Source of the DNA: an uncultured Holophagales bacterium
Lineage (GTDB): Bacteria > Acidobacteriota > Thermoanaerobaculia > Multivoradales > UBA5704
Reading direction: 5' to 3'
NCBI GenBank assembly: GCA_963842525.1
Contig: CAWJGT010000034.1
Location: forward strand, 192,001 to 256,000
Length of the DNA stretch: 64,000 bases
The position numbers and the translations under genes were made by a program. A model generated the notes under the pieces. That model did not search any database. It saw only the letters and a list, made by a program, of their open reading frames with translations, and was not told where the DNA came from. Positions 4,964 through 56,883 of this stretch are shown one piece after another (position 1 is the first letter of the stretch; the number at the start of each line of letters is the position of its first letter).

Positions 4964-6487
4964 TCAGACCTCGGCTGAAGGTTGTTTCTGGGCGGCTCGC
5001 AACCGCCTCCACTTCGCCATGAGACTCTCTTCCGTGACGTACTCGTGAATCAGATAGAGGGGTGCGAGCAGTGAGAGCACCGTATAGACCATAATTGGAA
5101 TAAATAATAACGAGAACCATCCACTCGTTCCCCATAAAAGAATACCGCTGATCAACCCCGAGACAGTTAGCGTGCCGCAGCCGGTTCCTAAACGTAACGC
5201 CTTTCTTTTCTTGAACCTTATCTTCTCCTGCCTTTTTCCCTCCTCATGTTCCAGCAACTCCGCTTCCAGGCGCCTTTGCTTGGCCCGCAGTATAGGGATC
5301 ACCAGGCTGTCATGGCTCACTTCGTAAGCGTAGCCGCCGCCGGCGTGAGGCTCGGCACGAATCAGATGGGTGTCCACGAGACTGCGGAGGAGGTCGGCTC
5401 CAATCTGATAATTCCTCTGAATTTGGCCCTCATACAGGCTCAGACGACGCTTGTCGTCTTCGAACACCAATCCATCCTCGATCAGTATCCTTGCCGCTTT
5501 CTGCGCATTGGCGGGCAGCTTCTGGATACTGCGTTCGTAATAGCTCTTATAGATCTCCTCCAGGTCCCCGATGTCAGAGGATTCTATATAGGAATCATTT
5601 TGCCTAAGGACGATCTCCTCCTCTACGTGCTGGCAGAGGATCTGAAGCTGAAAGGATTCGATATCCGTGGCCCCGTCCTTGGAGAGGAAGCTCAGTATTC
5701 TGCCGAGGGATTCCTGCTCGTAGGAGAAAGGCGGCGACAGGAAATCACCCTGCTGTGCCGCCGGAAAAATGATCGCCTTCTCGGCCTCGTTGCGAGACAA
5801 GTTGTTGAGCTCAAAACAGTTGCGTAAAATATTCGGCAGCCAGGCAGACAGAGATTCGATATGGCTCATCTTGTCCGAGCGGATGGAAAGGAGAGCCATC
5901 ACAGGGGGCCCGGCCTTGAGAAGCGCCCATTCCTCTTCGGTGAGAAGGGTCGGATCGTAGCGCGTGCGGAGCTGAAGCGACCGGCGGAAACTTTCGGGCA
6001 TGCGGTCGTAGAGCAGATCGGCGAGTGCTTCAGCAAAGTCGCCGACTCCCTGGGGAAATGAGAAAAGCTCCTCGAATTGATCGAACACCAGGAGAATCGC
6101 GCGCTTGTCGGGGTTATCGAGCTGAATTCCCTTGAAGCACTGCCAGATGGAGGGAACCTCCTCGACTCGGGAGAGAAAGTTGTCGCCAGAAGAGATCTGC
6201 AGGAGTCTCTGCTCAAAAATTACTTCGGGCCGCGGCGTGACTCGGGGTATGTAGCTGGTGAAGCGAATCGGAATGGTCAGATAGTTGTGCTCTCTCCCGA
6301 GCAGGGGCACCACGCCGGCGTTGATGAGGGACGACTTGCCGAGGCCGGACCGCCCGTAGAGCACTGTCAGCGGCTCGACCCGAATCTGGGTGGCGAGCTT
6401 CCGGATATCCTCATCGCGGCCGAAGAAGACAGAGCTGTCGTCCGATGTAAAGGGTCGCGAGCCTGGGTAGCGGGGACGTTTCTCCAT
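4964..6487 (-). CDS. nSTAND1-type NTPase with C-terminal transmembrane helices
   Basis: RYPGSRPF...FFGRD, Walker A GRSGLGKSS, LVFDQFEELF, LSIRSD, FQLQILC, YEVSHDSL; hydrophobic C-terminus. Start taken at MEKRP (6487). Confidence 0.88.
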   Translation of the reverse strand: MEKRPRYPGSRPFTSDDSSVFFGRDEDIRKLATQIRVEPLTVLYGRSGLGKSSLINAGVVPLLGREHNYLTIPIRFTSYIPRVTPRPEVIFEQRLLQISSGDNFLSRVEEVPSIWQCFKGIQLDNPDKRAILLVFDQFEELFSFPQGVGDFAEALADLLYDRMPESFRRSLQLRTRYDPTLLTEEEWALLKAGPPVMALLSIRSDKMSHIESLSAWLPNILRNCFELNNLSRNEAEKAIIFPAAQQGDFLSPPFSYEQESLGRILSFLSKDGATDIESFQLQILCQHVEEEIVLRQNDSYIESSDIGDLEEIYKSYYERSIQKLPANAQKAARILIEDGLVFEDDKRRLSLYEGQIQRNYQIGADLLRSLVDTHLIRAEPHAGGGYAYEVSHDSLVIPILRAKQRRLEAELLEHEEGKRQEKIRFKKRKALRLGTGCGTLTVSGLISGILLWGTSGWFSLLFIPIMVYTVLSLLAPLYLIHEYVTEESLMAKWRRLRAAQKQPSAEV

Positions 6488-6497
6488 GACAGTTGAC

Positions 6498-7592
6498 TCA
6501 CTCGCCGGGCGGCGGCAGTGCCTCATCGATGATGGATGTCAGTTTCTCAGTCGTCCGGGCGCACTCGACGTCTATGTCCTCCTGCTTGATCTGCCCTCTT
6601 CTCCTGTCTTGCAAGAACCGGTTGTAGTGTCCGGACAGAGTGATGACCTCATTGAAGAGACTCCGATCCCCCATCTCTTCGAGGTGGTCCGCCAACGGCT
6701 CGAATAGGCCCTCTATTTTCCCCTGCTTGAGAAGATCGAGAAGGCGCTCGCGTAAGGAGAGGAGGGGCGCCTCCCTGATCTCGCGAAGCTGACCGGCACT
6801 CTCGCAGTGCCTGTAGAGGCTGTCGACGTACTGGACTACACCGGAATCGATGAACTCCAATCCGTAGTTTCGTCCGTAGAAGTCGCGGAGCTGGGCAGGT
6901 GTAAGGTTCTCGGGCTCGGCGGCCTGGGAAGGTTTCTCGCGGCTGAGGCGGAACAAGTTGAGGAGAAGATGGAGATACCACTTCTGGAAGTCGAAGCCCA
7001 AGAAGATGAAGTAGCTCGCCTCTGATATGACCGTCCGCAGCTCATCGGGGAGCTTGAAGTCGCGGATGACGGAAAAGACGAACTGGATGAGATCGGTGTG
7101 AGTCAGGATGAGTGAGGCGTCATCCTCGATGCTGCCAAAAAGGTTGTAAAGCAGGGGGCATTCCTTGGATGGCCGGCCAACGGGTTCCGGAGTGCTCTGC
7201 TTGGCGTAGTATGCAAATTCGTGATCGATCCCGAGCTCGGAGAATGCCGCGGGCAGGACCAGGTCGGGAGTAAGGGAGATGATCAGGTGGGCGGGAATCC
7301 GAGCGAGTTGCCGGTGGAAGTCATTGGGACCGGAGCTCGCGCTGTAGTATTTCTTGATCGGGGTGTAGAGCCGGCGCCTGGTGGCCTCGTCGCAGCGGTA
7401 GAGACCGTCGACATCCTCCGAGACTTGCAGGCGCTGATCGATTAGATGGGCCAGCAAGGCGGTCTGAATCGGCTCGCCCGCTCTGTTGGTGCCGACGTTG
7501 GGACCAAGCAGAATGACGCATCGCTCTTCGGCAAGGTTCTCGGCGATCTCGTCAATTGGTATAGCCATTTCCGCATGTTCCAACTGGTCCAA
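6498..7592 (-). CDS. SIR2-like domain protein with C-terminal EAD11-like domain
   Basis: CVILLGP, IISLTPD, LYNLFGSI, LILTHTD, FIFLGFDF (SIR2_2-like; the usual KxHG His is replaced by Phe). C-terminal LLDLLKQGKIEGLF...LSGHYNRF...GQI. Alternative ATG at 7568. Confidence 0.8.
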   Translation of the reverse strand: MDQLEHAEMAIPIDEIAENLAEERCVILLGPNVGTNRAGEPIQTALLAHLIDQRLQVSEDVDGLYRCDEATRRRLYTPIKKYYSASSGPNDFHRQLARIPAHLIISLTPDLVLPAAFSELGIDHEFAYYAKQSTPEPVGRPSKECPLLYNLFGSIEDDASLILTHTDLIQFVFSVIRDFKLPDELRTVISEASYFIFLGFDFQKWYLHLLLNLFRLSREKPSQAAEPENLTPAQLRDFYGRNYGLEFIDSGVVQYVDSLYRHCESAGQLREIREAPLLSLRERLLDLLKQGKIEGLFEPLADHLEEMGDRSLFNEVITLSGHYNRFLQDRRRGQIKQEDIDVECARTTEKLTSIIDEALPPPGE

Positions 7593-17571: not shown

Positions 17572-18342
17572 TCATGTCGGATCGGTCGTCAAGTTCGCGA
17601 AAAGGGCCGGTAGCACCTCCTTCAGTGCCAGGTATTCATCTGAGAACGTCACAGGGATCTCCTGGAGGCGCTCGGCCCGTTCTATGGCTTCGGCTGCTTG
17701 TTCGCGCGTGACGAGGCCGGGATGCAGACCAACTTCGCCGGTCTTTGTGATATGGACGTACAAGGCTGACTGCTTCTTGCGGTCGAGCGAGCCGTCGGCG
17801 ATTTTGCGCGCTTGTCCGGTCGACCAATCCGCATCCCTCCAAGGATAACCGCGCCCGAAGCGCTCGATTTCCTCGTGGCGGTAGATATTCAGCGCCGTCG
17901 CGACATCTGACGGAAACGAGACATCCGGTTCGACCGGCTCAGGGTCGTTCGGGTCGGGCGCGAAGTTGCCCTGCTTGTAACGGTCGATACACCTCTGCAG
18001 CCACGCCATTTTCTGCTCATGCCACTCCCCGCGGCGCTTGGATAGCTCCGCAAGAGCGGGCGAGTCCCAGGGCGGCAGCCATTCCATGACAAGGCCGAGC
18101 AGATGCTTGCATTCGTGCCGTGCCATCGACCGCTGCACTTCACGCACCCACGGCAGGGCGCCATCGGCGACGAGTTGCAGGAGGAAGGCCTTAGCGAACT
18201 CCTCCTGGGCGAGAATGGCTAAAGCAAGCGCTGTCGAGAATCGATCCCAATCGAACAGGAATTTCGCGTCTTCGAGAAGCTCTTTACCGTTCTTGGTCGT
18301 CGCGGAGATCGAGGCCTGCAGGACTTTGGGTTTCGGCTGCAT
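17572..18342 (-). CDS. AbiV-family (HEPN-like) abortive-infection protein
   Basis: NGKELLEDAKFL, ALAILAQEEFAKA, HECKH, KKQSALYV motifs. Start taken at MQPKP. Confidence 0.8.
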   Translation of the reverse strand: MQPKPKVLQASISATTKNGKELLEDAKFLFDWDRFSTALALAILAQEEFAKAFLLQLVADGALPWVREVQRSMARHECKHLLGLVMEWLPPWDSPALAELSKRRGEWHEQKMAWLQRCIDRYKQGNFAPDPNDPEPVEPDVSFPSDVATALNIYRHEEIERFGRGYPWRDADWSTGQARKIADGSLDRKKQSALYVHITKTGEVGLHPGLVTREQAAEAIERAERLQEIPVTFSDEYLALKEVLPALFANLTTDPT

Positions 18343-18514
18343 AGTTGACAATTCCAAGAAAGGGCGGAGCCCCATAAGTGCCACCTGATTCTACAACTCG
18401 GAGCCCCCTGTGATCCACACCCATACGCATAAGAGCTACGAGGAACGACAGCCTTTAGGGCTTCTACCTACCCGCCGCATAATTCTACTTTGTCAGATTG
18501 AGCCCGGCTTGCGA

Positions 18515-32596: not shown

Positions 32597-32925
32597 TCAG
32601 CTCGGCACGGGTAGCCGCTCCAGCCGCGTCCTGTAGACGGGATTGCGCTCGAAGATCAGCTCGAGGTCGTGGCTCCCGATCCGGAGGCGGTCCACGGTGA
32701 CGTCGGCCGCGCCCAGCCAGGCGCCGCCGTGCTCGCCGCACACCCAGCGGTCGAGCCGGTGCCGCTTGCCGTCGATCCGCAGCCGCGGCGGCCTGCGCTC
32801 GGGGTTCTGGATCGTCACCGCCACGGCCACCCGGGAGGTCGTGCGGACAGCGTCGCCTGCCCCGCCGCGTACTCGCGGTCGAGCTGCAGGATGTTGGTCC
32901 ACCGGGCCGGGTCCATCTGGTGCAT
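32597..32925 (-). pseudogene. Internally deleted radical-SAM gene remnant, copy 1
   Basis: MHQMDPARWTNILQLDREYAAGQATLSAR joined out of frame to ...LDRWVCGEHGGAWLGAADVTVDRLRIGSHDLELIFERNPVYRTRLERLPVPS; near-identical to 42397-42812. Confidence 0.78.
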
Positions 32926-33111
32926 GCAATCCTTCTACGCCTGCGGAGGGAAAGGCGTCCAGCGGAGTCTATTCTACTCTACTCCGCCGCGCACCTTACC
33001 TGGAGTGCTTGGCTCCGGCGTAAAGTGCCCCGCAATGGCGGATCGTGCCACCCAGTTCCACTGCTGATCACGCCGGAGTAAGATGAACGTAGTTCATAGA
33101 CGAGCTCTGCG

Positions 33112-36100
33112 GTGGCGAAATCAACCCTTCAGCATGATCGCGGCGGCCCCGTTAATCTGCGGGGCATCCACTATCAGCTCCTCGCAACATTCCGGGAGGT
33201 GGGTCGGGCCGTCCGCGTCGTGTCTCACGATGGTGAGAACGGCCCCCTTACCAGCGTGATGCTGGTTATTGAACCGTACGGAGGAGGCGACAGCGCGATT
33301 TCTCAGGGCGCCGCTCGCCGTGTCCAACAGATCAAGACTCATCAAGGAGTCTGGACCCTCGCCGAGCTCGCCAGGAGAGTTTTTCCAGATCTCTTCCGAG
33401 CCTACTGCAGCGACCCCGGAGCCGTCGCAGTCGAGCTGGTTACGAACGGCCGACTTGACACGCAGGCGCAGGGCTTTTGCGCGATGCTTGACGTAAGCTC
33501 CGAGGGGAGGGCGAAGGGCTGGGGAGGGCTGGAGCAGCACGCGGTTGAAGAAAATGACCTGCTCCCTTGGTTCAGGGGGGTAGCGCGGTCCACCAACAAG
33601 CCTGCCGCGAGGGCAACCTTCGCTGACCTAGTCGACTATCTTGCGAACAAGCTCCCTAAAATCGCCGCTGCCGAGCAACTCAACGAAGTTCCACATCGTG
33701 AGAGAGTCAAGGGCTTTCTGAGCCGATTAGCTCTGCGAACAGGGCTCTCCTTTGAGGATCAGGAGAATGAGTGTCGTGAGTTCTTGCAGGCTTGGGGCAT
33801 TTCACCCAAAGCCGTCCCTAGAGCCATTGACCAAGTCGTTGGTTACCTACTGCGCCGGGGCCACCCTGGTAATCAGGCAGTTACCTTCGGTGAGCTTGCG
33901 CTCACACTTGGTCTTGCAGACCGAGACCTCGGCGACTGGACCTTTTTGAGCACTCTGAGCTGCGACCGCCTCCTGACAGACCTTGCTCGCCCCCGACCCG
34001 CCTACCACGAAGATCAAGACGTTCGGCAGTCCGATCCTCTCGTACCTGAACTCTTGTGCCTCATATCTCGACCGAAGGCAGATCAGATCGTTGAATCGTT
34101 TGGCTCTCCCGCGCTCTCCAGTTATCAGCTCCGGCCGATCGTTATATGGGGCAAGAGTGGGATCGGCAAGACTTGGCTTCTCGCGCGCGCCGCCCACCGA
34201 CTCGCCCAGATCAAGCACTCGCCAACTTCGGCGGGGCCGGCAATATTGTGGATGTCTTCCCAGCAGGATCCTCAAGCCGATCTTCAAGCCGCGGCACAAA
34301 AGTTCTGCCATCGCATATGGGGGCGCGAGCAACCGCTTCCGGTGGAGCTCTTGGCAGATCGCGTAAGCCAGTCGACCGATAGCAGTCCGGTACCATGGCT
34401 CGTGGTCTTTATCGATGGGATACAGTCTCCCAACTATCTGGGCCGGCTCAGTGAAGTGCCTCACTCCGAGTTGGGCATTCTTCTAATCGTCGCTGTCACC
34501 GTGCAATTTGACAGTGACTCTCCAGAATTCCCCGGGCTGCGCCTCCTGAAAGCCCCGGGCTTTAATCCAGATGAGGTGCTTCGTTTTTTGGAACGCCGTG
34601 CTCCCATCTCGCGGGGGCTTCCACCCACCGACGTCCGCAAGCTACTCGAGACGCCCGTTTTTTTGGCATTCTACGCAGCCTTGAAGCACGATGGATCCAT
34701 CTGGCAGCCCGAGGACGAGTACGGACTGATTCAACACTTTTGGCTGGAGCGGATTGCGAGGCCGCGTCCGCAGGCGGCTGACGTATTGGCCAGGCTCTCC
34801 TGCACGCGAATGCGAGAGGCCACGGCTACCAGTGATCGACCTCCTCAGGGCCACCTCAACTGGACGGTGGCCGAGCTAAAGGAAGCCGGTCTTACGCAGG
34901 AGGATCTTGACTTACTTGAGGTTTCGGCGATCCTCGTTCGGGACACTTGGAGTCGCAGCTATTTCTTCGCTCACGAACGAATCCTGCAGTGGACTGCAGC
35001 CGAAGGAGCACTTCGCGCCTTTCAGGCTGGGGGATTCCAGGCGGAAGAGCTTGCCGAGATCTGCACCGCCATCCTGATCGGCGAGAGTCAGGCTCGATGG
35101 ATGTTCGGCTATATGCCCGCCGACCTGCTCTGGCTCCTCCTCGATCCCGACTTGCCGGAGACTTGCTGGTCGGCAGCCGAAGCTCTACTAGGTAGGCTTG
35201 AACGACATCACCATTTCTCAAGCCTGAAGGACTGGCTCTCCACACTCGGCCCACGCCTCGTTCCTCCACTTTTCAAGCGGCTTCGCTCTGCAGACCACAA
35301 GAATGCGGGCATCCTCTACACCTATCGAGATGCTCTCATGCAGATTCCGGGTGCCGACGTTGCGGAACGCGCCACCAAACTCCTCGCAGAACCTTCCCTA
35401 GAGCTCCAAGAGATCGGTGTGCAGCTGCTCGGAGGGAGGGAGTACCTCCCGGCCTTGGACACCCTCTGGAGTCTCTACCAGGAATGGTGGGCCGCAGCTC
35501 ACAGCGAGCGGCCTCCAAACTCGGAAACCCGCGAGGGCCCCTGGATGTACCACGTTGATATCGGGGAGACGGCCCTTCGGCGATCGGTACGCAACCGGCC
35601 GGAATGGTTGGAGCGTAAGCTCCTTGAAGCGGAGAGCCTTGGCGGTGCGAACTCAACCCTCCTCTTTTTGTTGGCTTCCACGCCAAAGGGCGAAGCCGTT
35701 TGGAAGCGCCACAAAGCGCTTCTTCGGGACCGTCTGGCGGAGGATCGGCAACGGGGATACATTCGTTGCATTATCTCTTTTCGGGATCTGGATGAACGCC
35801 CCTGGCTAGAAGGCAAAGTTAATGAGACTCGAGGCTTCGTCGCGCCTGCAGCTCGCGGTGCCCTTGCTCTTCTGGCTCCAGAAAGCGCCTTGGCTCAGGT
35901 CGATCCTGAGGCGTTATTTGATTTAGGTTCCACTCCCGGGTGGTGGCTGCCTCTGGTCCGCATTCAGAAGCCGAGAGAAACGGCTCGCTTCCTCAAGGAC
36001 TTGATTCTAGGCTCTGACAATCCGATCAAAGCTCTTTTCGCATTCAGCGGTTTCGAACTATGGTATCCACCCGAAGTCGTTGATTTCCTATTTGACACTG

Positions 36101-37869
36101 TCCAAAAGGAACTGACAGCTCTCAAAGAAGGTAGGGCCGAGTCCAGCAAGGACCTGTTATACGCACCTCTCTTGCGCCTGTCAGATTGCAACACGGTTGA
36201 GCAGCTCGAAATTTTTTGGAAGCCCAGCCACCAACAACTCGAATCTCAACTTGCGGACTGGCTGACTGACTGGGGCCCGAACGATACAGGTTGGGTACGA
36301 CGTGGCAGTGAGGAAGAGGCGGGCGAGGTGCTAAAGCTAATTGCTGGGCCCGGCATGGCTAAAGTAGGAGCGAGCATACTAGAACGGGCTGAGACCTGGA
36401 CGGGGGGCCGCGACGGTCTCTATTTGGCTGTCCGAGAACCGGATGCGGAAGCTCGAGCGGCGATCCGACGCAAGGCGCTCGATCCGACACTGTCTGCTTC
36501 ACCAAGAGCAACGCAGCATCCGATACTCCAGCGCTTCTGTTTAGAAGCTTTAGCCTATCTTCGGGATTTCGATGGATTTGCCTACGGCGTAGTGCAGTGG
36601 GGTCTCCTACTTCCTCCGAATCTTGCCACGTATCTCGATGATCATCGCGGGAAACCCGAGATGCTCAGAGTCGCCAAGGAGGCACTAAAAAAACACCCAG
36701 TTACGCCTGGTGCGTTTTTGTTGCTGGGCTTGCATGGCGGGACGGAGGCCCTCGACTGCCTCCGGACGCAGCGACCCAGCCTTGAATCTGCGGACCTACA
36801 ACTTGGCTGGATTATCGGTCTCGACTACTCCATAGATTGCTCCAGCGAAACGCTGGCTGTATTTGCACAAGGCTTAGAAAGTGCAGACGCCCGTATTCAA
36901 TTCTCCTCGTGGCAGGCCCTCCTGCGCCGGATCGAAAACCCCACAGCCCAGGAGCTGCTCTTGTCGGTGATCGATGGAGGCCAGAAGGACTCCGCGCGAC
37001 TCGCAGCCCATCTCCTTGATCAGGAGATACTTCAAAAGGCAGTAGCCGAGCGGCTCTGGCAAAGGGAACCGAAGGATACTTGGTTTCTTTACGACTTCGC
37101 CAACCAACTGGAGAAATTCGCCGTTCTCGGAACAGATGAGATAAAGGAATTCCTACTCAAGCACGCTACCGAAGCGCAGAACCCAATGACCCCAGCAGCA
37201 AGATATTCTGCAATCCGAGGTCTCGCCTCCTTAAATCGTGACCTCGCGTTTCGAGCAGCCCGTGCCTGTCGGCCGGGAAAGAGGAGCACGGAGGACATCA
37301 GTTGGCCAGCGCTGCTCGTGGAGGTTGGAGGCTCTAAAGCACTACCCGACCTTAAAGTGGAAATAGCTGAAGATCGCGACGTCGTTCGGCTTCATGCGCT
37401 GGGCGAGGCGCTACGAGCTCAGAAACAGCATCAGATTCTCCTATATTGGCTTCAGGATGAAAACCCAAGAGTCCGAGAAGGTGCCTGCTATGCCGCTTGC
37501 GCCCAAGCGTATGATCTTCAACTCGAACACACTGTGATTCGCTGTTGCCTCGACCCAGAAGAGGACGTGCGCACCGCAGCACAAGCTGCCTTCGATCACC
37601 TATGGAGGGATCGTGAGGTGGGCCGTTTGATTGACCGCCTCCACTCAGAGTCCCGTTCAGGCCGCCGCTGGGCTCTTCTCGACTCGGCGCTGGCTATCGG
37701 CTATCCAGGCGTTCGTCCCGGCTTTGGACAGATCTCGTGGTTCAGTGAGCTTATTAGCGGTCGACCTTACTACGAGGTTGATTACTCCATCAATCGGCTC
37801 AAAGAGCGCCGAAAGAAGGTTGTCGAGGAACTAAAGAGACAGTCCAAGAATTTCCGCGCGGATGCGTGA
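33112..37869 (+). CDS. Large STAND/NACHT-like NTPase with N-terminal PD-(D/E)xK-like nuclease and helical-repeat C-terminus (Avs-like defence protein)
   Basis: GGPVNLRGIHYQ...GGGD...QQIK; Walker A GKSGIGKT; Walker B VVFIDG; YFFAHERI; HEAT-like ENPRVREGA and EEDVRTAA; codon usage unlike flanking genes. Confidence 0.75.
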   Translation: MAKSTLQHDRGGPVNLRGIHYQLLATFREVGRAVRVVSHDGENGPLTSVMLVIEPYGGGDSAISQGAARRVQQIKTHQGVWTLAELARRVFPDLFRAYCSDPGAVAVELVTNGRLDTQAQGFCAMLDVSSEGRAKGWGGLEQHAVEENDLLPWFRGVARSTNKPAARATFADLVDYLANKLPKIAAAEQLNEVPHRERVKGFLSRLALRTGLSFEDQENECREFLQAWGISPKAVPRAIDQVVGYLLRRGHPGNQAVTFGELALTLGLADRDLGDWTFLSTLSCDRLLTDLARPRPAYHEDQDVRQSDPLVPELLCLISRPKADQIVESFGSPALSSYQLRPIVIWGKSGIGKTWLLARAAHRLAQIKHSPTSAGPAILWMSSQQDPQADLQAAAQKFCHRIWGREQPLPVELLADRVSQSTDSSPVPWLVVFIDGIQSPNYLGRLSEVPHSELGILLIVAVTVQFDSDSPEFPGLRLLKAPGFNPDEVLRFLERRAPISRGLPPTDVRKLLETPVFLAFYAALKHDGSIWQPEDEYGLIQHFWLERIARPRPQAADVLARLSCTRMREATATSDRPPQGHLNWTVAELKEAGLTQEDLDLLEVSAILVRDTWSRSYFFAHERILQWTAAEGALRAFQAGGFQAEELAEICTAILIGESQARWMFGYMPADLLWLLLDPDLPETCWSAAEALLGRLERHHHFSSLKDWLSTLGPRLVPPLFKRLRSADHKNAGILYTYRDALMQIPGADVAERATKLLAEPSLELQEIGVQLLGGREYLPALDTLWSLYQEWWAAAHSERPPNSETREGPWMYHVDIGETALRRSVRNRPEWLERKLLEAESLGGANSTLLFLLASTPKGEAVWKRHKALLRDRLAEDRQRGYIRCIISFRDLDERPWLEGKVNETRGFVAPAARGALALLAPESALAQVDPEALFDLGSTPGWWLPLVRIQKPRETARFLKDLILGSDNPIKALFAFSGFELWYPPEVVDFLFDTVQKELTALKEGRAESSKDLLYAPLLRLSDCNTVEQLEIFWKPSHQQLESQLADWLTDWGPNDTGWVRRGSEEEAGEVLKLIAGPGMAKVGASILERAETWTGGRDGLYLAVREPDAEARAAIRRKALDPTLSASPRATQHPILQRFCLEALAYLRDFDGFAYGVVQWGLLLPPNLATYLDDHRGKPEMLRVAKEALKKHPVTPGAFLLLGLHGGTEALDCLRTQRPSLESADLQLGWIIGLDYSIDCSSETLAVFAQGLESADARIQFSSWQALLRRIENPTAQELLLSVIDGGQKDSARLAAHLLDQEILQKAVAERLWQREPKDTWFLYDFANQLEKFAVLGTDEIKEFLLKHATEAQNPMTPAARYSAIRGLASLNRDLAFRAARACRPGKRSTEDISWPALLVEVGGSKALPDLKVEIAEDRDVVRLHALGEALRAQKQHQILLYWLQDENPRVREGACYAACAQAYDLQLEHTVIRCCLDPEEDVRTAAQAAFDHLWRDREVGRLIDRLHSESRSGRRWALLDSALAIGYPGVRPGFGQISWFSELISGRPYYEVDYSINRLKERRKKVVEELKRQSKNFRADA

Positions 37870-37890: not shown

Positions 37891-38732
37891 GTAGAGTCGG
37901 CGGCGGGCGCGGTGTCTGTAGGCCGAGGGAGTAGCTGTGGCCGGCGGCTTTCGCCTACTCGCCGGTGCCTCGGTCTCGGCCGTGGCTCCGTTTCCCACCG
38001 CCGCTCATCGAACCGGACTTGCGGATCTCCCGCATCCGGCTCTCGGACGGGCTTCACAGCAGGGCATGCACGGGTGCCGTGGACTGTCTGGCCCCTCGCG
38101 ATCGAGACCTTGCGTTTCCCGCTTGGCCCTGCCATACAGCTTCTTCCGGAGGTACTCGACAAATTGGGTTCTAGCCTCACGGCAATGCCCTGTCTCTACC
38201 TCCCCTCAAGAGCGCACCCGAACCAGGGCTCCGTCCCTCCACCGGCATTACCCGGCTTCATCGGTACCATGGGCCCCTCCGACTTCCACACGGCCCGAGG
38301 CTGACCATTTCAAATCACCCCGGTTGGTGGCCGCGACCCACCACCTATGTGGATCTCACACGTTGCCTCAAAGACCTTGTCTGCGCATGCTGACCCCACT
38401 ACCCCGGCTGGAGAGGACGAGTTCTTCGGTCGGTTGCTCCCCCGCCCCCCGACGGCCTTCCCCTTATGGCAGGAGGGTCGGCTCCAGCGAGAAACTATCG
38501 AGGCCTGCTCAGGGTTCACGTGCTTTTCGGCCTGCGCATTTGCACCCCGGTTGCACCGAGGACTTCCCCGGAGGCTTCAGCCGGGCGATTGCTCAAGCTC
38601 AGCTGCTCCAGTGGCTACCGGGCGAACCGACAATTCCCCGGACGGGACTTCCACCCGCTGGCCTTCGAGACCCAGGAGGTCTCTCTGTAATCTGCAAACT
38701 CAGCTCACATCAGACCTCCCTTCGTGTCGCAC
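37891..38732 (-). mobile_element. ORF-less group II intron (~840 nt)
   Basis: 5' GTGCGA at 38732; domain V GAGCCGGATGCGGGAGATCCGCAAGTCCGGTTC; extended domain VI ending CTCTAC at 37891. Only a short intron-encoded-protein stub (VEYLRKKLYGRAKRE) remains. Confidence 0.88.
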
Positions 38733-38764: not shown

Positions 38765-39350
38765 TGCGGTCGAGGGCTCCATGTGAGCGGGAGATCGACG
38801 ATGGTGACGCCGGCTCGACGATGGTGAGCGGGAGCCTCGACGCCAGTGACGGCGGGCTTGACTCCGGTAAGCGGGAGATCGACTCCAGTGATGGCGAGCT
38901 TAACTACCGTCAGCGGGAAATCGACGATCGTCACGGCGACTTCGACTCCCGTCAGCGGGAGCCTGACTGGAGTCACGGAGGCTTCGACGCCTGTCAGCGC
39001 GAGCCTGACTGGAGTCACGGAGACTTCGACTCCCGTCAGCGCGAGCTTGACTGGAGTCACGGCGACTTCGACTCCCGTCATCGTGAGCTTGCCTGGAGTC
39101 ACGGCGACTTCGACGCCCGTCATCGTGAGCTTGCCTGGAGTCACGGCGACCTCGACTCCCGTCAGCGCGAGCTTGACTGGAGTCACGGAGACTTCGACGC
39201 CCTTCAGTGCGAGGCTGACTGGAGTCACGGAGACTTCGACGCCGGTCAGCGCGAGCTTGACTGGAGTCACGGCGACTTCGACTCCCGTCATCGTGAGCTT
39301 GACTGGAGTCACGGAGACTTTGACTCCCGTCAGCGTGAGCCTGACTCCGG
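38765..39350. repeat. Tandem array of ~28 21-bp units (42-bp higher-order dimer)
   Basis: gactggagtcacggcgacttc / gactcccgtcagcgcgagctt alternate; GAC recurs every 21 bp; units decay toward 38765. Confidence 0.93.
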
Positions 39351-39390: not shown

Positions 39391-39422
39391 AAAAAAAGGG
39401 GCGTGGCTTGTGGCCACGCCCT
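39391..39422 (-). terminator. Intrinsic terminator
   Basis: Minus strand GGGCGTGGC-CACAA-GCCACGCCC-C-TTTTTTT just after the stop at 39447. Confidence 0.85.
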
Positions 39423-39446: not shown

Positions 39447-39851
39447 TTACTCCTTCAGCGATGGTGCCGGCGGCTCCGCCGGGGCGGGGCTCGGCTTCAC
39501 CGGTTTGCCATCCACACCGACCAGCTTGAGCCGAGGCTGGCTGCGGAAGGGCTGCTGGCCGAACTCCACCAGCTTCTCCGACCGGGTGCCGTAATGCACC
39601 CGGATCCCGGCATCCACGAAGGTCATCAGCTTCTGCCCCTCGTTGTTGAGCTCAGCGAGACGCTTCGTGACCTCCTGTTTTGCCGCGGTCAGGCTCGCCT
39701 GCTTCGCGGTCAGATCCTTCAGCTCTGTCAGCACCGAGTTGACCTTTTGGCGTGTCACCTCCATCTGGGGCAGCTCCGCACTGTTTGCCTCCAGTGCCTG
39801 GCGTCGCAACTCCAGCTTCTTCTGAGTTACCGCAGTCGGTGAACCTGGCAT
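39447..39851 (-). CDS. Small coiled-coil hypothetical protein (..HYGTRSEKLVEFGQQPFR..)
   Basis: AAGGAGG RBS; long heptad helix followed by the GxRSEKLxEFG motif and a Pro-rich tail. Confidence 0.82.
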   Translation of the reverse strand: MPGSPTAVTQKKLELRRQALEANSAELPQMEVTRQKVNSVLTELKDLTAKQASLTAAKQEVTKRLAELNNEGQKLMTFVDAGIRVHYGTRSEKLVEFGQQPFRSQPRLKLVGVDGKPVKPSPAPAEPPAPSLKE

Positions 39852-39881
39852 CAACTCCTCCTTTGGTGAACGCCGCCCGGC

Positions 39882-40301
39882 CTATCCGAGCTGCGCCGCG
39901 AGATCGAGCACTTCGTCGGTGAGGCCCTTGTCGGACCCCTTCGAGCGCCCGGTGAGGGCGATGATCACGGTCCCGCCGACCTGCGAAACCCGCAGGGGCT
40001 GACCCGCCTGGCGGGCGAGCAGCGACGCGAACGTCAGATACGAGGCCGCCACCAGCGGGTCCGCGAACTGCCGCACCCGGTCGATGGCCTTCCCTTCCGG
40101 CAGCATCTTCCAGCCCTGCATCCGCTTCAGGCGCGTCTGCACCCGCTCGGCCTTCAGCCGCTGCTCCGCCTGGTTCCGCGTCACGGCCAGCGCGGCGCCG
40201 ACGGTGTCGTCCTGACCCGTCACCCGCTTCCTCATCAGAGCCAGCGACTCTTCCTGCACCCGCTCCGCCTTCAGCTCCTGCTCGGCCTGGGTCGTCTCCA
40301 T
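39882..40301 (-). CDS. Pterin-4a-carbinolamine dehydratase (PCD/DCoH)-like protein, catalytic His motif absent
   Basis: LKRMQGWKM...AIDRVRQF...GLTDEVLDLAAQL fits the PCD pattern but lacks HHP; duplicated QAEQxLKAERVQ in the N-terminus. Confidence 0.62.
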   Translation of the reverse strand: METTQAEQELKAERVQEESLALMRKRVTGQDDTVGAALAVTRNQAEQRLKAERVQTRLKRMQGWKMLPEGKAIDRVRQFADPLVAASYLTFASLLARQAGQPLRVSQVGGTVIIALTGRSKGSDKGLTDEVLDLAAQLG

Positions 40302-40361
40302 ACCGTTTCTCCTCTCGGAAGCTCCGGCACCTGGAACGGCGCCGGAAGCGCTCACAGGAGA

Positions 40362-40455
40362 AGGATAGGCCAATAGAAGAGAAGAAGTCAACACCTAATT
40401 TTGGTACATCTTCGCCTGATGTGCGCTTATCTTCGCTTGACTCCGTTTTTGGTGT
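40362..40455. promoter_or_regulatory. Divergent promoter/operator region
   Basis: Minus-strand TTGACT(40391)-N18-TATCCT; direct repeats ATCTTCGCYTGA at 40408 and 40429 (21 bp apart); ACACCTAA/TTTGGTGT imperfect inverted repeat. Confidence 0.5.
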
Positions 40456-40458
40456 AGG

Positions 40459-40857
40459 ATGGCCGGCATGGCACCCAGGCGGAAGGCACCCAAGCGGAAC
40501 TACACGGAAAAGGCCCATGCGCTGGCGGAACGGCTTCGCAGCGCTCTGAAGGCGGAAGTCCGGAGGCGAGACTTCCGCCAACTCGATCTCGAGCAGGCGC
40601 TGGGAAGGAGCCATGGCTACTTTTCCCACCTGTTCGGAGGGAGGCTGGCCCTGACCATGGAGGGTGTCCTCGAGGTCCTGCTGGCGCTCGACGCCGACCC
40701 CGCCGAGTTCTTCACCGCCGCGCTCGGGGCTGAGGAAGAAAGGAAGGGCGGGCCGAGCTCCGAGGAGATCGAGGCGACCGTCCTCCGCGCCTTGAGGCGG
40801 TACGGCTACGCCCCAGGAGGAGAAGCGGACGAAAAGAAGAGGCCAGGGCGGCCCTAG
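40459..40857 (+). CDS. XRE-family HTH regulator
   Basis: RQLDLEQALGRSHGYFSHLFGGRLALTMEGVLEVLLALDADPAEFF; its stop overlaps the convergent TPR gene stop (CTAG). Confidence 0.85.
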   Translation: MAGMAPRRKAPKRNYTEKAHALAERLRSALKAEVRRRDFRQLDLEQALGRSHGYFSHLFGGRLALTMEGVLEVLLALDADPAEFFTAALGAEEERKGGPSSEEIEATVLRALRRYGYAPGGEADEKKRPGRP

Positions 40858-41858
40858 ACTGCCCAGAATTTCCGCTGCGCGTACAGGAGCCGGCTCAGCT
40901 CGCACAGCAGATCGAGGTCGGGCTGCGAAGAAGCCAGGATCCTGTTCAGCAGCCGAACCTCCTGGGAGTCCTCGGGAATGCCGATCTGGGCCAGGATGGG
41001 ACCCACCAGAGCAACTTCCGCCCGCGCCTCGAGCGGGCTTGACGTCAAGAGGTGCCGCGCCAAGTCGAGAGAGATCAGCGCGCCTTCCTGAAGCATCTTC
41101 TCCGCGGCGCAGCGTTCCCTGACCTCGACAAACGCGGCACGCGCCGACTCTTCGCCGAGCGCACCGGCGATCCGCGCGAGAATCCACTCCACCCTGACCT
41201 TGGCACGAATTGCCCCTTGTGCAAGGAAAGAGCGAGAATGCTGCAAGACCCGAAGGGCCTCCGCCGGGCGGCCCGAGTTGGCCAGGTAAAGCGCCAGGTT
41301 CTGGAGCGCTGATCGCAAAAGCTCCTCGCCCTTGGCTGAAGATGAGTGGTCTGCGAGTGTTTCGACGGCGCCCAGCGCGACCCTCCAAGCATCATCCGGT
41401 CTTTCAGACTGGTCGAGGATCATGGCGTTCAGCAGCAAGATCGACGAGTGGGCAAGAGGGTCTGCCTGCTTACACTGAAGGGCGGCAGCTTGAGAGAGAG
41501 CTTCGGAAGCTCTCTCTAGCCTGTGCAGGTCGTACAGGAGTGAAGCCTTGAACTCGAAAAGGCGGGGCTCCACTGTGCAGAGAGCCAGTGCCCTGTTCAG
41601 ATGAGCCTCGGCGCTCGTGAATTCTCCCATGACCCTGTGGGCGTTGCCCGCGTATCCATAAAGCCGAGCCGCCGTGTGCGCGTCGGTTTCCGGAGGAAGA
41701 CCGACCAGGGCGGCATCGCACCAGGCCCGCATCGCGGCAGGATCACGGTACCGCAGGGCAAACCCGTGCTCAGCCAGAGAGAGGCGTTCCCCCGCCGTCC
41801 CCGGCTGGTTGCGAAAGTAGAGAGCTGCAGCTTCAGGGTCTCGGAAGCGCAATTTCAT
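40854..41858 (-). CDS. TPR-repeat protein
   Basis: YAGNAHRVMGEFTSAEAHLNRAL, KASLLYDLHRLERASEAL, NLALYLANSGRPAEAL, WILARIAGALGE; no enzymatic or HTH domain evident. Confidence 0.82.
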   Translation of the reverse strand: MKLRFRDPEAAALYFRNQPGTAGERLSLAEHGFALRYRDPAAMRAWCDAALVGLPPETDAHTAARLYGYAGNAHRVMGEFTSAEAHLNRALALCTVEPRLFEFKASLLYDLHRLERASEALSQAAALQCKQADPLAHSSILLLNAMILDQSERPDDAWRVALGAVETLADHSSSAKGEELLRSALQNLALYLANSGRPAEALRVLQHSRSFLAQGAIRAKVRVEWILARIAGALGEESARAAFVEVRERCAAEKMLQEGALISLDLARHLLTSSPLEARAEVALVGPILAQIGIPEDSQEVRLLNRILASSQPDLDLLCELSRLLYAQRKFWAV

Positions 41859-41926
41859 CCCCTCTTAACTTCGGAAAGCAGCGAGCGGGATGATAACGCG
41901 ACGACGCTGCAAGGGGAAGCTTCGGC

Positions 41927-42223
41927 TTACGCCCCGCCTGGGCACCCATTGGGGTCAAGTGAGCATCGACCATCGCCCAATGACTCGGGCGCGGGCTGGG
42001 CCGGTGCCGGCGCCCCGTGCGGGCACCCGTCGGGGTCGATGGTGCAGCGACCATCGACATGCAAGTTGAACCAGGCGGCGACGTCACCCCAGATGCTGGC
42101 GAGCCAATCGAACGCCGAAGCCTGATCAGCGCTACGGATCTCTCTTTCCTGGGCGGCAACGGCCACCGGCATGCACGCCAGCAAAATCGCGACCGCACTC
42201 GCGGTCAGTACTTTCCGGAACAT
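41927..42223 (-). CDS. Secreted precursor-like peptide with two DGRCxxDPxGCP cores
   Basis: GAGGAGG RBS; signal MFRKVLTASAVAILLACMPVAVAA; Trp-rich helix FDWLASIWGDVAAWF; DGRCTIDPDGCP and DGRCSLDPNGCP. Confidence 0.82.
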   Translation of the reverse strand: MFRKVLTASAVAILLACMPVAVAAQEREIRSADQASAFDWLASIWGDVAAWFNLHVDGRCTIDPDGCPHGAPAPAQPAPESLGDGRCSLDPNGCPGGA

Positions 42224-42396: not shown

Positions 42397-42812
42397 TCAG
42401 GACGGTTTGGGCAGCCGTTCCAGCCGGGTCCTGTAGACGGGATTGCGCTCGAAGATCAGCTCGAGGTCGTGGCTCCCGATCCGGAGGTGGTCCACGGTGA
42501 TGACCGCCGCGCCCAGCCAGGCGCCGCCGTGCTCGCCGCAGACCCAGCGGTCGATCCGGTGCCCCGCTTGAGCGTAGGGAAGACCGGAGCGAGCCGGTCG
42601 AACATCTCCTCGGACAGGAGGGCCGGGAACCCCGATCCGGACTGGTACCGCGGATCGACGATGATCGGGCACATCTGGCAGCGCAGGTTGCAGCGCGCCG
42701 CCACCTCGATGTAGGCCTCCAGCGGCCGCGCGGACAGCGTCGCCTGCCCCGCCGCGTACTCGCGGTCGAGCTGCAGGATGTTGGTCCACCGGGCCGGGTC
42801 CATCTGGTGCAT
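42397..42812 (-). pseudogene. Internally deleted radical-SAM gene remnant, copy 2
   Basis: MHQMDPARW...YIEVAARCNLRCQMC (CxxxCxxC)...FDRLAPVFPTLKR joined out of frame to the C-terminal IDRWVCGEHGG...RLERLPKPS. Confidence 0.82.
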
Positions 42813-42877: not shown

Positions 42878-44140
42878 TCAGGGCGAATCCAGCACGGTCT
42901 GCACGTCGTCCCCCACGACGTCCTCGACGTAGAGGAGCTTGACCGCGACCATGACCGCGGCGAGGAAGGGAACGGCGACCAGCATGCCGAGGAAGCCGAA
43001 GACGACTCCCATGAGGGCCAGGCCGAGCAGGGTCAGAACAGGCGGCAGGTCGAGCCCCTCGTTCATCAGCAGGGGGATCAGGACGTGGTTCTCCAGGAAC
43101 TGGATCGCGATGTAGGCGAGGGCCACCAGGAGGGCCTTCTGGGGCGAATCGAGCAGCCCCATCGCCACCGCGGGGATGGCGGAGAGCAGCGGACCCACCA
43201 TGGGCACGAACTCCAGCAGGCCGGCGAGGATGCCGAGCGCAAAGGCTGCCTTGACTCCGATCAGCTTCAGGGCGATGGTGGTCACGACACCGATCACCAC
43301 CATGGCGATGAGCTGGGTGACCAGCCAGCGGCGCAGGGTGATGCCGATGGCGGTCAGCACCTCGGCCGCGCGGGGCCGCGCGCGGTGCGGGACCAGGTGC
43401 AGCAGGCCCCGGTAGTAGAGCTGCGGATTGGACGCGATGTAGATGGTCAGGAAGATGATCAGGATCACCCCGGTGACCACCGCCACGGTCGACGACAGGA
43501 ACGAGAACAGATAGCGAGTGACCGCTCCCAACTGGCCGGAGAGGGTCTCGGGCAGATTCGAGAGCTGGCCCGACGGCTGTGCTCCCTGGTCCGCGGGAGG
43601 CTCCTCCCCGGCCGCAGGACCGCCAGGCCCCGGGGCTGCGGACTGGCGCTGCGCAGGCGAAGCCGGAGCCTGCTGCGGGCCGGCCGGTTGGCCGGAATCG
43701 AGGGGCAGCATGCGACCCAGGAAGCCGTCCTGGTGACGGTACATCCAGGCCTCCACCTTGCCGATCGCCTGGGGCACGGCCGTGCGCAGCTCCCTGAGCT
43801 GTGCGCCGAACGTCGGTCCCGCCCAGGCGCCCAGGCCGACGAGGAGCCCCAGAAACGCCAGGACGATCAGCGTCGCTCCGATCCCGCGCCGGATCCGCCA
43901 CCGTTCCAGGTATTCCGCCCCGCGCGCCACGGGCAGCGCGAAGAGCACGCCGAGGAACGAAAGGAAGAGCAAGGGATAGACGAGCCAGAGCAGCCGGGCC
44001 GTGAGATAGACCGCCAACACCAGCGCCGCGGCGCGCAGCACGTCGGCGCTCCGCCACCCCGACATCCGAGCAAGCGCCTGCGCGCTCCGCGGGGGCGCCG
44101 CGGGCGTACGTGCCTGGGGCACACCGAGATCGATCGCCAT
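42878..44140 (-). CDS. AI-2E family transporter
   Basis: LRRWLVTQL, GLLEFVPMVGP, IQFLENHVLIPL, FGFLGMLVAVP. Confidence 0.92.
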   Translation of the reverse strand: MAIDLGVPQARTPAAPPRSAQALARMSGWRSADVLRAAALVLAVYLTARLLWLVYPLLFLSFLGVLFALPVARGAEYLERWRIRRGIGATLIVLAFLGLLVGLGAWAGPTFGAQLRELRTAVPQAIGKVEAWMYRHQDGFLGRMLPLDSGQPAGPQQAPASPAQRQSAAPGPGGPAAGEEPPADQGAQPSGQLSNLPETLSGQLGAVTRYLFSFLSSTVAVVTGVILIIFLTIYIASNPQLYYRGLLHLVPHRARPRAAEVLTAIGITLRRWLVTQLIAMVVIGVVTTIALKLIGVKAAFALGILAGLLEFVPMVGPLLSAIPAVAMGLLDSPQKALLVALAYIAIQFLENHVLIPLLMNEGLDLPPVLTLLGLALMGVVFGFLGMLVAVPFLAAVMVAVKLLYVEDVVGDDVQTVLDSP

Positions 44141-44356
44141 ACCGTTCTGACAAGCAAAGGAGATGCCGGCGGTTCCGCGCCTGCCACCACCGCGCCGGCG
44201 CGAACGCAGTCGGGATCTGCCGGGGAAGGGTGGCCAGGGGCGGTTGTCACGAATCCCCTGCTCTCTGCACTAGAGGTATTGAGGCCATGGCGGGCTCGTG
44301 AAGCCGCAGCGACGGCGCTCGGCGCGGGACTTGATTCGGTTCGAGGGGCTTTAGCG

Positions 44357-45169
44357 ATGTTGCAAGATAACGAAGTCGAGATCTACCATCGAGACGGATT
44401 CCTATTCGTCCCGGCCTGTTTCTCCGAGGCCGAGGTGAATGTCTTGCGGGCGGCACGCGATGCGGAGCTGGCCCAGGAGTCGGAACGCCGCGTCAACGAG
44501 AAGAACGGCAAGGCCGTGCGTTCCGTGTATGGCTCTCACAGGACCAACGAGGTGTTCGATCGCCTGGCGCGGCACCCGCGCCTGCTCAACCCCGCGCGCC
44601 AGATCCTGGGGAGCGAGGTCTATGTCTACCAGTTCAAGATCAACGCCAAGGTCGGTTTGGAAGGAGATGTCTGGCAGTGGCACCAGGATTATGTGTTCTG
44701 GCTCCGCGAGGACGGCCTTCCCGCTCCGCAGCTCGTCAATGTGGTCGTCTATCTGGACGAGGTCAACGAGTTCAACGGCCCGATGATCCTGATCCCGGGA
44801 TCCCAGGGAGGGGACGTCATCGAGGTCGATCCGTTGCAGGACAAGCCCGCTCCCTATGCGGACAAGCCCGACTGGATCTCGAATCTCACGGCCGACCTCA
44901 AGTATTCGATTGACAAGGAGACTTTAGCCCGGCTGCTCCGCCAGCGCAGCATGGTGGCTCCCAAGGGGCCTGCCGGATCTGTCCTGCTCTTCCATCCCAA
45001 CCTGGTGCATGGATCGGCCCAGAACATGTCCCCCTTCGACCGGACGATCGCGATCGTCAGCTACAGCCGTGTGGACAACATCCCCCAGCGGGAGGTCCGG
45101 CCGGAGTTCCTGGTGAGCCGCGACCACCGGCCGCTCGAGCCGGTGCCCGATAACGCGCTGACCGCCTGA
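44357..45169 (+). CDS. Fe(II)/2-oxoglutarate dioxygenase, PhyH/EctD-like hydroxylase
   Basis: YHRDGFL, YQFKINAK, WQWHQDY (HxD), NGPMILIPGS, LVHGS..NMSPFDR. Start taken at MLQDNE (44357). Confidence 0.88.
   Translation: MLQDNEVEIYHRDGFLFVPACFSEAEVNVLRAARDAELAQESERRVNEKNGKAVRSVYGSHRTNEVFDRLARHPRLLNPARQILGSEVYVYQFKINAKVGLEGDVWQWHQDYVFWLREDGLPAPQLVNVVVYLDEVNEFNGPMILIPGSQGGDVIEVDPLQDKPAPYADKPDWISNLTADLKYSIDKETLARLLRQRSMVAPKGPAGSVLLFHPNLVHGSAQNMSPFDRTIAIVSYSRVDNIPQREVRPEFLVSRDHRPLEPVPDNALTA

Positions 45170-45340: not shown

Positions 45341-56883
<11,543 letters not shown>

Follow-up and report, generated by a model that had tools for sequence, protein, structure and literature searches.

A peptide/TPR/XRE gene cassette expanded in Thermoanaerobaculia and its possible role as a peptide-sensing switch

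We analysed a stretch of 64,000 nucleotides (hereafter the window) that covers positions 192,001-256,000 of contig CAWJGT010000034.1 in the 9.95-Mb, 34-contig genome of an uncultured soil acidobacterium (assembly GCA_963842525.1). Close relatives of this genome in the public collection are named as Thermoanaerobaculia bacterium metagenome-assembled genomes, and one is named Holophagales. An original prediction, in which identities were read from the letters alone, had placed a peptide-signalling switch here, made up of a small secreted peptide, a protein of tetratricopeptide repeats (TPR), an XRE-type regulator and a divergent operon of two genes. Reading of the open reading frames (ORFs) showed all five genes to be present in the window. 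Judging by genomics and structure models, a genuine peptide/TPR(/XRE) cassette family specific to this lineage almost certainly exists, and the five genes form one of its copies. The cassette family is massively expanded in one family of the Thermoanaerobaculia (Acidobacteriota), and the window holds its 'split regulator' variant.

The pro-peptide gene (41927..42223, minus strand) encodes 98 amino acids and its ATG is preceded 7 nt upstream by the Shine-Dalgarno sequence GGAGG. The N-terminus reads by eye as a signal peptide with n-, h- and c-regions that ends in VAA, with QE following, and export of the peptide is predicted on this basis. The peptide further contains a Trp-rich amphipathic helix stretch, FDWLASIWGDVAAWF, with three Trp in 15 residues, and at its C-terminus two Cys-bounded DPxG cores, DGRCTIDPDGCP and DGRCSLDPNGCP. 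With ORF, Shine-Dalgarno sequence and signal peptide in place, the secreted-type peptide with a Trp-rich helix and two cores was thus read correctly at first. Five homologues from a database search carry one to three cores each and paralogous peptides carry up to four. Family alignments show four parts: the signal peptide is followed by a helix conserved as LxxxWxxLxxxW, then by a spacer that varies, and finally by [DE]xGxx(x)DPxG cores. The cores inside one peptide are near-identical, each of about 11 residues with an invariant DPxG, and the last one lies at or near the C-terminus; DPNG or DPDG are the very last residues of many family members. The Cys pairs of the window peptide are a trait of its subfamily and not of the whole family. 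Among the matches of the family profile in this genome, the window peptide ranks second (E 4.7e-27).

On the same strand, 68 nt beyond the end of the peptide gene, starts the gene of a TPR-only protein (40854..41858, minus strand, 334 aa), which is a putative cytoplasmic peptide sensor. Its stop codon (40854-40856) overlaps the TAG (40855-40857) of the convergent XRE gene, as had also been noted in the original prediction. The protein matches Pfam TPR_2 with 31.3 bits against a cut-off of 27 and its AF2 model (pLDDT 95.4) has 19 helices. Neither Pfam and NCBIfam nor the model revealed a helix-turn-helix (HTH) domain, a signal peptide or any N-terminal domain. Both family collections returned only generic TPR matches plus a weak match to the NsdA family (E 0.0014, 18 against 75 bits). 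Foldseek likewise retrieved generic TPR superhelices, and the model resembles the peptide-binding superhelices of LGN, Rap and NprR. A single-sequence search among 1.84 billion representatives gave 237 proteins at E ≤ 0.001, seven of them at 1e-30, and the family is therefore narrow. An alignment of 65 sequences has R75 in every one and N72 in nearly all.

The pairing of a DPxG peptide with a TPR gene recurs throughout the genome. A motif detector for ORFs that end in DPxG at most 14 residues from the stop and that also have a signal-peptide-like stretch and a Trp/Phe pair gave 62 small-ORF candidates, of which about 10 appear spurious on visual inspection. With a profile of the window TPR protein and its first matches we found 145 ORFs at E ≤ 1e-5, some of them fragments of frameshifted genes, and 105 at E < 1e-20. 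Within 500 bp of one of these 105 TPR hits lie 51 of the 62 peptide candidates, compared to 2.4% of 20,000 random 300-bp segments; seen from the other side, a candidate peptide lies at most 500 bp away from 57 of the 105 TPR hits. For other genomes we took the best-matching peptide locus, one per genome (n = 29), and 28 of these have a TPR-family hit (E < 1e-10) within 1.5 kb of the peptide, the sole exception being a contig end of 1.85 kb. Linkage of peptide and TPR genes is therefore far above chance, and the check that had been suggested for the original prediction, namely whether DPxG peptides adjoin TPR genes elsewhere, turned out in its favour.

A peptide family profile built from 22 peptides matched all 61 sampled genomes of the same family, covering 11 of 11 genera, and 40 of 40 when only genomes of at least 90% completeness and at most 5% contamination were counted. 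Matches per family genome ranged from 2 to 68 and summed to about 1,440. An even sample of the phylum gave matches in 5 of 201 genomes, this genome included; the four others scored marginally, with E between 5.7e-7 and 9.5e-4, and the motif pattern was missing from their loci. In the genomes searched the peptide family was not found outside its order, which does not mean that it is absent there since only 26 candidates per genome were scored. One locus from another family of the same order (L009:2480-2959) encodes, beside a TPR homologue, a secreted-type peptide that has a Trp helix and carries the core QHGPLIDPNG twice, and the cassette family therefore reaches beyond the sampled family. A locus search with a narrower TPR alignment gave six loci, all of them relatives that had already been found. 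Among sequencing runs, none of RNA was listed as containing the sequence, and three DNA runs from soil metagenomes contained a 0.05 share of its words.

The cassettes come in three receptor architectures. Firstly, proteins of about 500 aa that lie opposite three-core Cys-loop peptides have an HTH_3/HTH_31 domain fused to the TPR region. Secondly, TPR proteins of about 450 aa follow a co-oriented peptide and have no Pfam N-domain. Thirdly, several shorter TPR proteins have a convergent small HTH gene as in the window (L011, L013, L023 and L026). Pfam confirmed HTH_3/HTH_31 both in the TPR fusions and in the small neighbour genes. With our own XRE profile, 16 of the 105 TPR hits proved to be fused to an XRE domain and 18 had a separate XRE-like ORF within 400 bp (random expectation 2.7%), whereas 71 had neither. 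The separate XRE-like ORF is on the opposite strand in 14 of the 18 cases, and in 10 of the 18 the TPR protein has a short N-terminus like that of the window protein. The idea that TPR sensor and HTH are split in this system, with both parts in one protein in related copies, is thus supported. Of the 105 TPR hits, 23 have an Hx4Cx2C motif and six have Cys and His in the canonical spacing (HxxxCxxC) of zinc-binding anti-sigma (ZAS) domains. A ZAS domain fused to TPR was considered and rejected for the window, as the window protein has no N-terminal domain and no zf-HC2 was found in a Pfam scan of cassette neighbours (of 157 called ORFs from 20 of about 51 cassettes, the 129 with at least 95 aa). 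The same 129 neighbours include no sigma-factor gene, which led us to reject an extracytoplasmic-function sigma/anti-sigma reading as well.

The XRE gene of the window (40459..40857, plus strand) encodes a small protein of 132 aa. As a single sequence it matches HTH_31 below the cut-off (E 0.016, 15.9 against 27 bits), but a profile of nine orthologues plus paralogues matches C.BclI (1.2e-8) and 50-odd further XRE structures, among them ClgR and HipB. Judged by this profile, the gene product is a lambda-repressor-type helix-turn-helix protein. It has a conserved C-terminal tail (GPS..IE..VLR.L.R.G) and orthologues at four related loci (L031, L033, L034 and L035). Between the XRE start and the -35 element of a divergent promoter lies a candidate operator (40408..40440) in which the repeat ATCTTCGC[C/T]TGA occurs twice, as two 12-nt direct repeats 21 nt apart; these are its only two matches in the window. 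The divergent promoter itself (40362..40391, minus strand) is predicted to be sigma-70-like, with TTGACT-18-TATCCT, and a TTGACA...TATCCT-like site recurs upstream of four orthologous operons.

This promoter is followed by the two genes of the putative output operon. The first encodes a PCD/DCoH-like protein of 139 aa (39882..40301, minus strand) and most likely starts at the ATG at 40301, which has AGGAG before it, and not with the longer ORF from an upstream GTG. Its match to PF01329 is just above the cut-off (26.8 against 26 bits). The structure model shows a helical hairpin, which carries two LKAERVQ motifs, and a DCoH domain of the order beta-beta-alpha-beta-beta-alpha. A structure search with this model gave 22 PDB matches at E ≤ 0.001, and ranks 1-22 as listed are all PCD/DCoH; the top match is 2ebb (E 3.2e-6, TM 0.77 on the target, root-mean-square deviation 2.3 over 87 columns). 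The catalytic histidines of pterin-4a-carbinolamine dehydratases (PCD) are those of the HHP motif and a third His. The HHP of 2ebb aligns to GQP in the window protein, and no His is present at the three catalytic positions in the displayed half of 41 aligned PCD-like rows or in the consensus. The protein is therefore a member of the fold but not a dehydratase. Apart from its start codon, which has been corrected, the operon of a catalytically degenerate PCD/DCoH-like protein and a coiled-coil protein agrees with what had been predicted. With DCoH and the non-catalytic PCD-like factor of carboxysomes (4low) as analogues, the catalytically dead protein most likely acts by binding another protein. 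The second gene (39447..39854, minus strand) encodes the coiled-coil protein of 135 aa, and a strong terminator-like hairpin of nine pairs with a T-run closes the operon (39399..39421, minus strand).

At E ≤ 0.001 the PCD-like family comprises 187 clusters, most of which show 57-84% identity and a length of about 139 aa, and its sources, where named, are mostly Thermoanaerobaculia, with one record labelled only 'bacterium'. It was found in 30 of the 61 family genomes and 6 of the 11 genera, with one to seven copies each. A coiled-coil homologue adjoins the PCD-like gene in 29 of 29 loci sampled from other genomes, and 24 of these have a gene for a peptide, a TPR protein or an XRE protein at a distance of 1.5 kb or less. 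All five PCD-like copies of this genome sit beside cassettes. The coiled-coil family is wider: this genome has 29 mostly stand-alone loci (e.g., C3:702640 and C23:3610) among which no common upstream partner was found, and only three of the 29 lie within 3 kb of a TPR hit, so that the coiled-coil family as a whole is not specific to the cassette. A protein atlas search with the coiled-coil protein returned only unnamed acidobacterial clusters. Conservation of the module was assessed by tblastn of the five window proteins on eight related loci. All five genes were detected in L031 and L035 and four in L034, which has no coiled-coil hit. L032 has all but a detectable XRE hit, although an XRE-like ORF was seen there nonetheless. 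The PCD-like pair was not detectable in L033, L036 and L012, and L011 gave a hit for the peptide only. Identities are 54-79% for the PCD-like protein and 64-67% for the coiled-coil protein, which is above those of the TPR protein (40-73%) and the peptide (38-52%). The module thus couples an output that is conserved to an input that evolves fast.

Two further analyses addressed the peptide and the TPR protein as a pair. Peptide-receptor covariation had been named as a check on the original prediction, and distances between peptides indeed correlate with those between TPR proteins over the 38 of 51 pairs with a near-full TPR hit (Mantel r 0.47, reached in 0 of 2000 permutations). Modelling of the TPR protein with its peptide had been another check. 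A co-fold of the TPR alignment with the peptide alignment, residues 25-98, returned 'weak support' with a score of 0.60 (runs 0.53, 0.64 and 0.60), while the best of three controls scored 0.00. In the calibration of this tool, 116 of 157 solved complexes passed the mark, as did 2 of 215 mismatched pairs. We take the co-fold as a weak sign that pushes the pairing slightly upward and no further.

Taken as a whole, the sequence data suggest that the cassette most likely is an RRNPP-like peptide-sensing switch. The architecture, the linkage and the split HTH of the original prediction stand, and its setting in a defence island does not (see below). The specific mechanism, in which an exported peptide core is bound by the cognate TPR protein and controls XRE and, through XRE, the PCD-like operon, appears to us to be evenly balanced between right and wrong. 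It would start with a small Sec-exported pro-peptide that leaves the cell. The conserved Trp-rich helix would serve a common handling step, and the variable C-terminal core or cores would be released. Once re-imported, or possibly prior to export, a core would then occupy the groove of its cognate TPR protein. The TPR protein would in turn alter the activity of its XRE partner, which is a separate convergent gene here and a fused domain in paralogues. Lastly, XRE at the divergent promoter region would control the operon of the PCD/DCoH-like and coiled-coil proteins, and probably itself too. The genome encodes three OppA-type (SBP_bac_5) binding proteins, which makes an uptake route possible but does not demonstrate uptake. 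One OppA-type gene (C9:403765-404823) lies about 3.3 kb from a peptide/TPR cassette (C9:408093-409882), and this may be coincidence. A wider scenario would be that this diderm soil bacterium has 50 or more private peptide channels, each with an exported DPxG-core peptide and a cognate TPR receptor (HTH-fused, split or with a Cys/His N-domain), that these arose independently of the RRNPP systems of Bacillota and serve kin or strain discrimination, and that the subfamily of the window switches the conserved effector pair of a non-catalytic DCoH-like and a coiled-coil protein. We put this forward tentatively, as possible rather than probable.

Several observations weigh against a peptide-sensing switch. 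The main obstacle to cell-to-cell signalling would be the way back through two membranes to a receptor in the cytoplasm, and the cassettes have neither a dedicated importer nor a processing protease linked to them. With about 74 aa (residues 25-98) the mature peptide is long, whereas RRNPP pheromones have 5-10 residues. The disulphide loops of the cores would moreover be reduced in the cytoplasm. The likeness of the TPR model to Rap and NprR is no better than that to the eukaryotic LGN, which points to a type of peptide-binding superhelix and not to kinship. The operator-like repeats of the original prediction are really there in two copies, but 8 of 100 shuffles also give at least two matches in the window, which makes the statistic weak, and the repeats were not seen by eye in four orthologous intergenic regions. 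For the 71 TPR hits that have no XRE link the output must be a different one. Correlated distances of peptides and TPR proteins are to be expected, since co-duplication alone gives the same result. The co-fold score falls in the weak band, in which only 18 of the 157 solved complexes passed at 0.60 or under together with both mismatches; its partner pLDDT was 46 or more, its contact agreement was 64% or more, and no interface was returned.

As a first alternative, the peptides could be secreted effectors, for example amphipathic and membrane-active, bacteriocin-like, or periplasmic and binding metal or Ca, with TPR and XRE regulating their production on another cue. The linkage of peptide and TPR genes would then reflect adjacency of regulator and target instead of pairing of ligand and receptor. 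A Trp-rich amphipathic helix, which is conserved, and a mature part of about 74 aa would seem to suit a secreted peptide with a function of its own better than the precursor of a pheromone. The number of copies in a genome, about 50, and their fast divergence are reminiscent of polymorphic competition loci, and the large fraction of TPR hits that have no XRE link (71 of 105) also fits. Yet immunity or export genes did not recur among the 129 neighbours scanned, and it is the short repeated C-terminal core that varies while the helix is conserved. Furthermore, the co-fold passed weakly where the controls scored zero, and TPR domains of such shape bind extended peptides. On balance we consider an effector role unlikely, although it is the strongest competitor of the peptide-sensing switch.

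A second alternative avoids the return across two membranes. Acting as a chaperone or partner switch, the TPR protein could bind the C-terminus of the precursor while this is still in the cytoplasm, and export of the peptide would free it to act on XRE, so that regulation would be coupled to secretion and re-import would not be required. Recognition of a C-terminus is typical of TPR domains such as those of Hop and PEX5, which fits the many peptides that end exactly in DPNG or DPDG, and the weak pass of the co-fold was obtained with the unprocessed mature chain. What argues against sensing of the precursor is that the Cys pairs flanking the cores in the subfamily suggest a function after periplasmic oxidation, and that one to four repeated cores would be superfluous for the recognition of one C-terminus. 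We also know of no such Sec-coupled circuit, and regard this alternative as distinctly improbable compared to both the switch and the effector role.

The flanking DNA bears on a third alternative, in which the peptide is the precursor of a ribosomally synthesized and post-translationally modified peptide (RiPP). The leader-like helix and repeated cores would in that case be modified by an enzyme encoded elsewhere, e.g., a radical SAM/SPASM maturase, with the TPR protein in recognition or regulation. A conserved N-terminal part with variable repeated cores does resemble the organization into leader and core, and a radical SAM/SPASM-like fragment is present upstream of the peptide (42397-42812). 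As had been stated before, the neighbouring radical SAM gene is a remnant: its about 416 bp are spread over two frames, with about 85 N-terminal codons that include CxxxCxxC in one and about 55 C-terminal codons in the other, and it matches TIGR04311 with 23 bits against a cut-off of 400 (E 2.9e-5). A second, more decayed copy is found at 32597-32929. At the window locus there is hence no intact, conserved maturase gene beside the precursor. According to tblastn with the window proteins, which did not include a radical SAM query, the place upstream of the peptide is taken in L033 and L036 by a second TPR stretch; L002 (the L031 locus) has a helical-repeat ORF of 330 aa there. The 129 cassette neighbours include a single B12-radical SAM gene, at 2.4 kb from a cassette, and RiPP precursors do not usually have a Sec signal peptide. 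A RiPP precursor is therefore very unlikely, the least probable of the readings that we weighed against a peptide-sensing switch.

The two radical SAM copies share blocks of more than 90% identity at both ends and bracket a stretch of 9.5 kb with a G+C content of 0.56-0.65, compared to about 0.67-0.75 around it. This segment, which holds the cassette, a protein of 1585 aa, a fragment of a group II intron and a tandem array of 42-nt units, looks mobile or recombined, and the bracketing copies may be the trace of an insertion or recombination event. The 1585-aa ORF (33112-37869, plus strand) lies in the part of the window with the lowest G+C; by eye it has a Walker-A-like GKSGIGKT and helical repeats, and no Pfam or PADLOC family was found for it. 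The intron fragment (38520-38660, minus strand) matches Rfam group-II-D1D4-4 with 87 bits against a gathering score of 49. The tandem array (38783-39346) has about 10-12 copies with 84-89% matches and is open in several frames on both strands.

The original prediction had also located the switch in a defence island, and this could not be established. Searches with the peptide, TPR, XRE and coiled-coil proteins and with the neighbour of 1585 aa returned no match above chance from either PADLOC or PHROGs. Defence-like genes do occur in the window, namely a cluster of TIR_2, an nSTAND1 NTPase and SIR2 + EAD11 (4091-7592) and an AbiV-type HEPN gene (17572-18384), but they are 21-35 kb away from the cassette, beyond an RND efflux operon. 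On the other side the cassette is adjoined by genes for an AI-2E family transporter (42878-44140, minus strand), a PhyH dioxygenase (44300-45169, plus strand) and a very large non-ribosomal peptide synthetase (NRPS; 45341-56848, plus strand). Two other cassettes with a PCD-like gene and a near-identical peptide are present on other contigs, and one of these cassettes (L023) lies beside an NRPS condensation domain.

Signalling by peptides that act on TPR receptors in the cytoplasm is regarded as a hallmark of Bacillota and their mobile elements. Acidobacteriota are abundant in soil and rarely cultured, and to our knowledge no peptide signalling has been described in them. In the literature that we searched, no paper connects Acidobacteria to RRNPP, secreted peptides and TPR. 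Three surveys of RRNPP(A) systems (PMC10075063, PMC9765709 and PMC12700828) name no Acidobacteria or diderms in the parts available, with 'Gram-negative' occurring only in a reference list. The family described here offers a clear and countable genomic signature; a genome holds dozens of copies, and the receptors come in three architectures. If the cassettes are a signalling system, they would show how such circuits operate across two membranes. In addition, an orphan and highly conserved family of DCoH-like proteins gains a genomic context.

The closest comparison is with the RRNPP(A) systems (Rap-Phr, NprR-NprX, PlcR-PapR and AimR-AimP). With these the cassette shares a receptor of the TPR-type superhelix, cytoplasmic there and predicted to be so here, and an adjoining small gene for a pro-peptide, for which export is predicted here. 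The known receptors carry their output domain themselves, either an HTH at the N-terminus or, in Rap, a 3-helix bundle, whereas the window TPR protein has none and the HTH is encoded by a separate convergent gene. The known systems are hosted by Bacillota, their phages and plasmids, and not by a diderm acidobacterium, and the peptide described here is longer and has a conserved Trp-rich helix and Cys-bounded DPxG cores. At the level of sequence the TPR protein has no match to an RRNPP(A) family in Pfam and NCBIfam, and no profile-profile comparison with the RRNPP(A) families was run. Tandemly duplicated Phr pro-peptides are known (PMC11343458), and they are alike in having several near-identical cores per pro-peptide, of which there are one to three in orthologues of the window peptide and up to four in paralogues. 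The predicted cores described here are of about 11 residues with an invariant DPxG and are sometimes closed by Cys. The PCD-like protein shares its fold with the HNF1 dimerization cofactor DCoH (1f93) and the carboxysomal RuBisCO assembly factor (4low), both of which are among the PDB matches, and differs by the missing catalytic His, by an additional N-terminal hairpin with the duplicated LKAERVQ and by its constant pairing with a coiled-coil protein. The TPR domain of LGN/Pins is eukaryotic and 14-17% identical, so that only the architecture is shared. Lastly, small XRE regulators such as C.BclI/C.AhdI, ClgR and HipB match the HTH profile (E 1.2e-8 to 1e-4), but they do not have the conserved C-terminal tail of the window XRE protein, whose gene is linked to that of a TPR protein.

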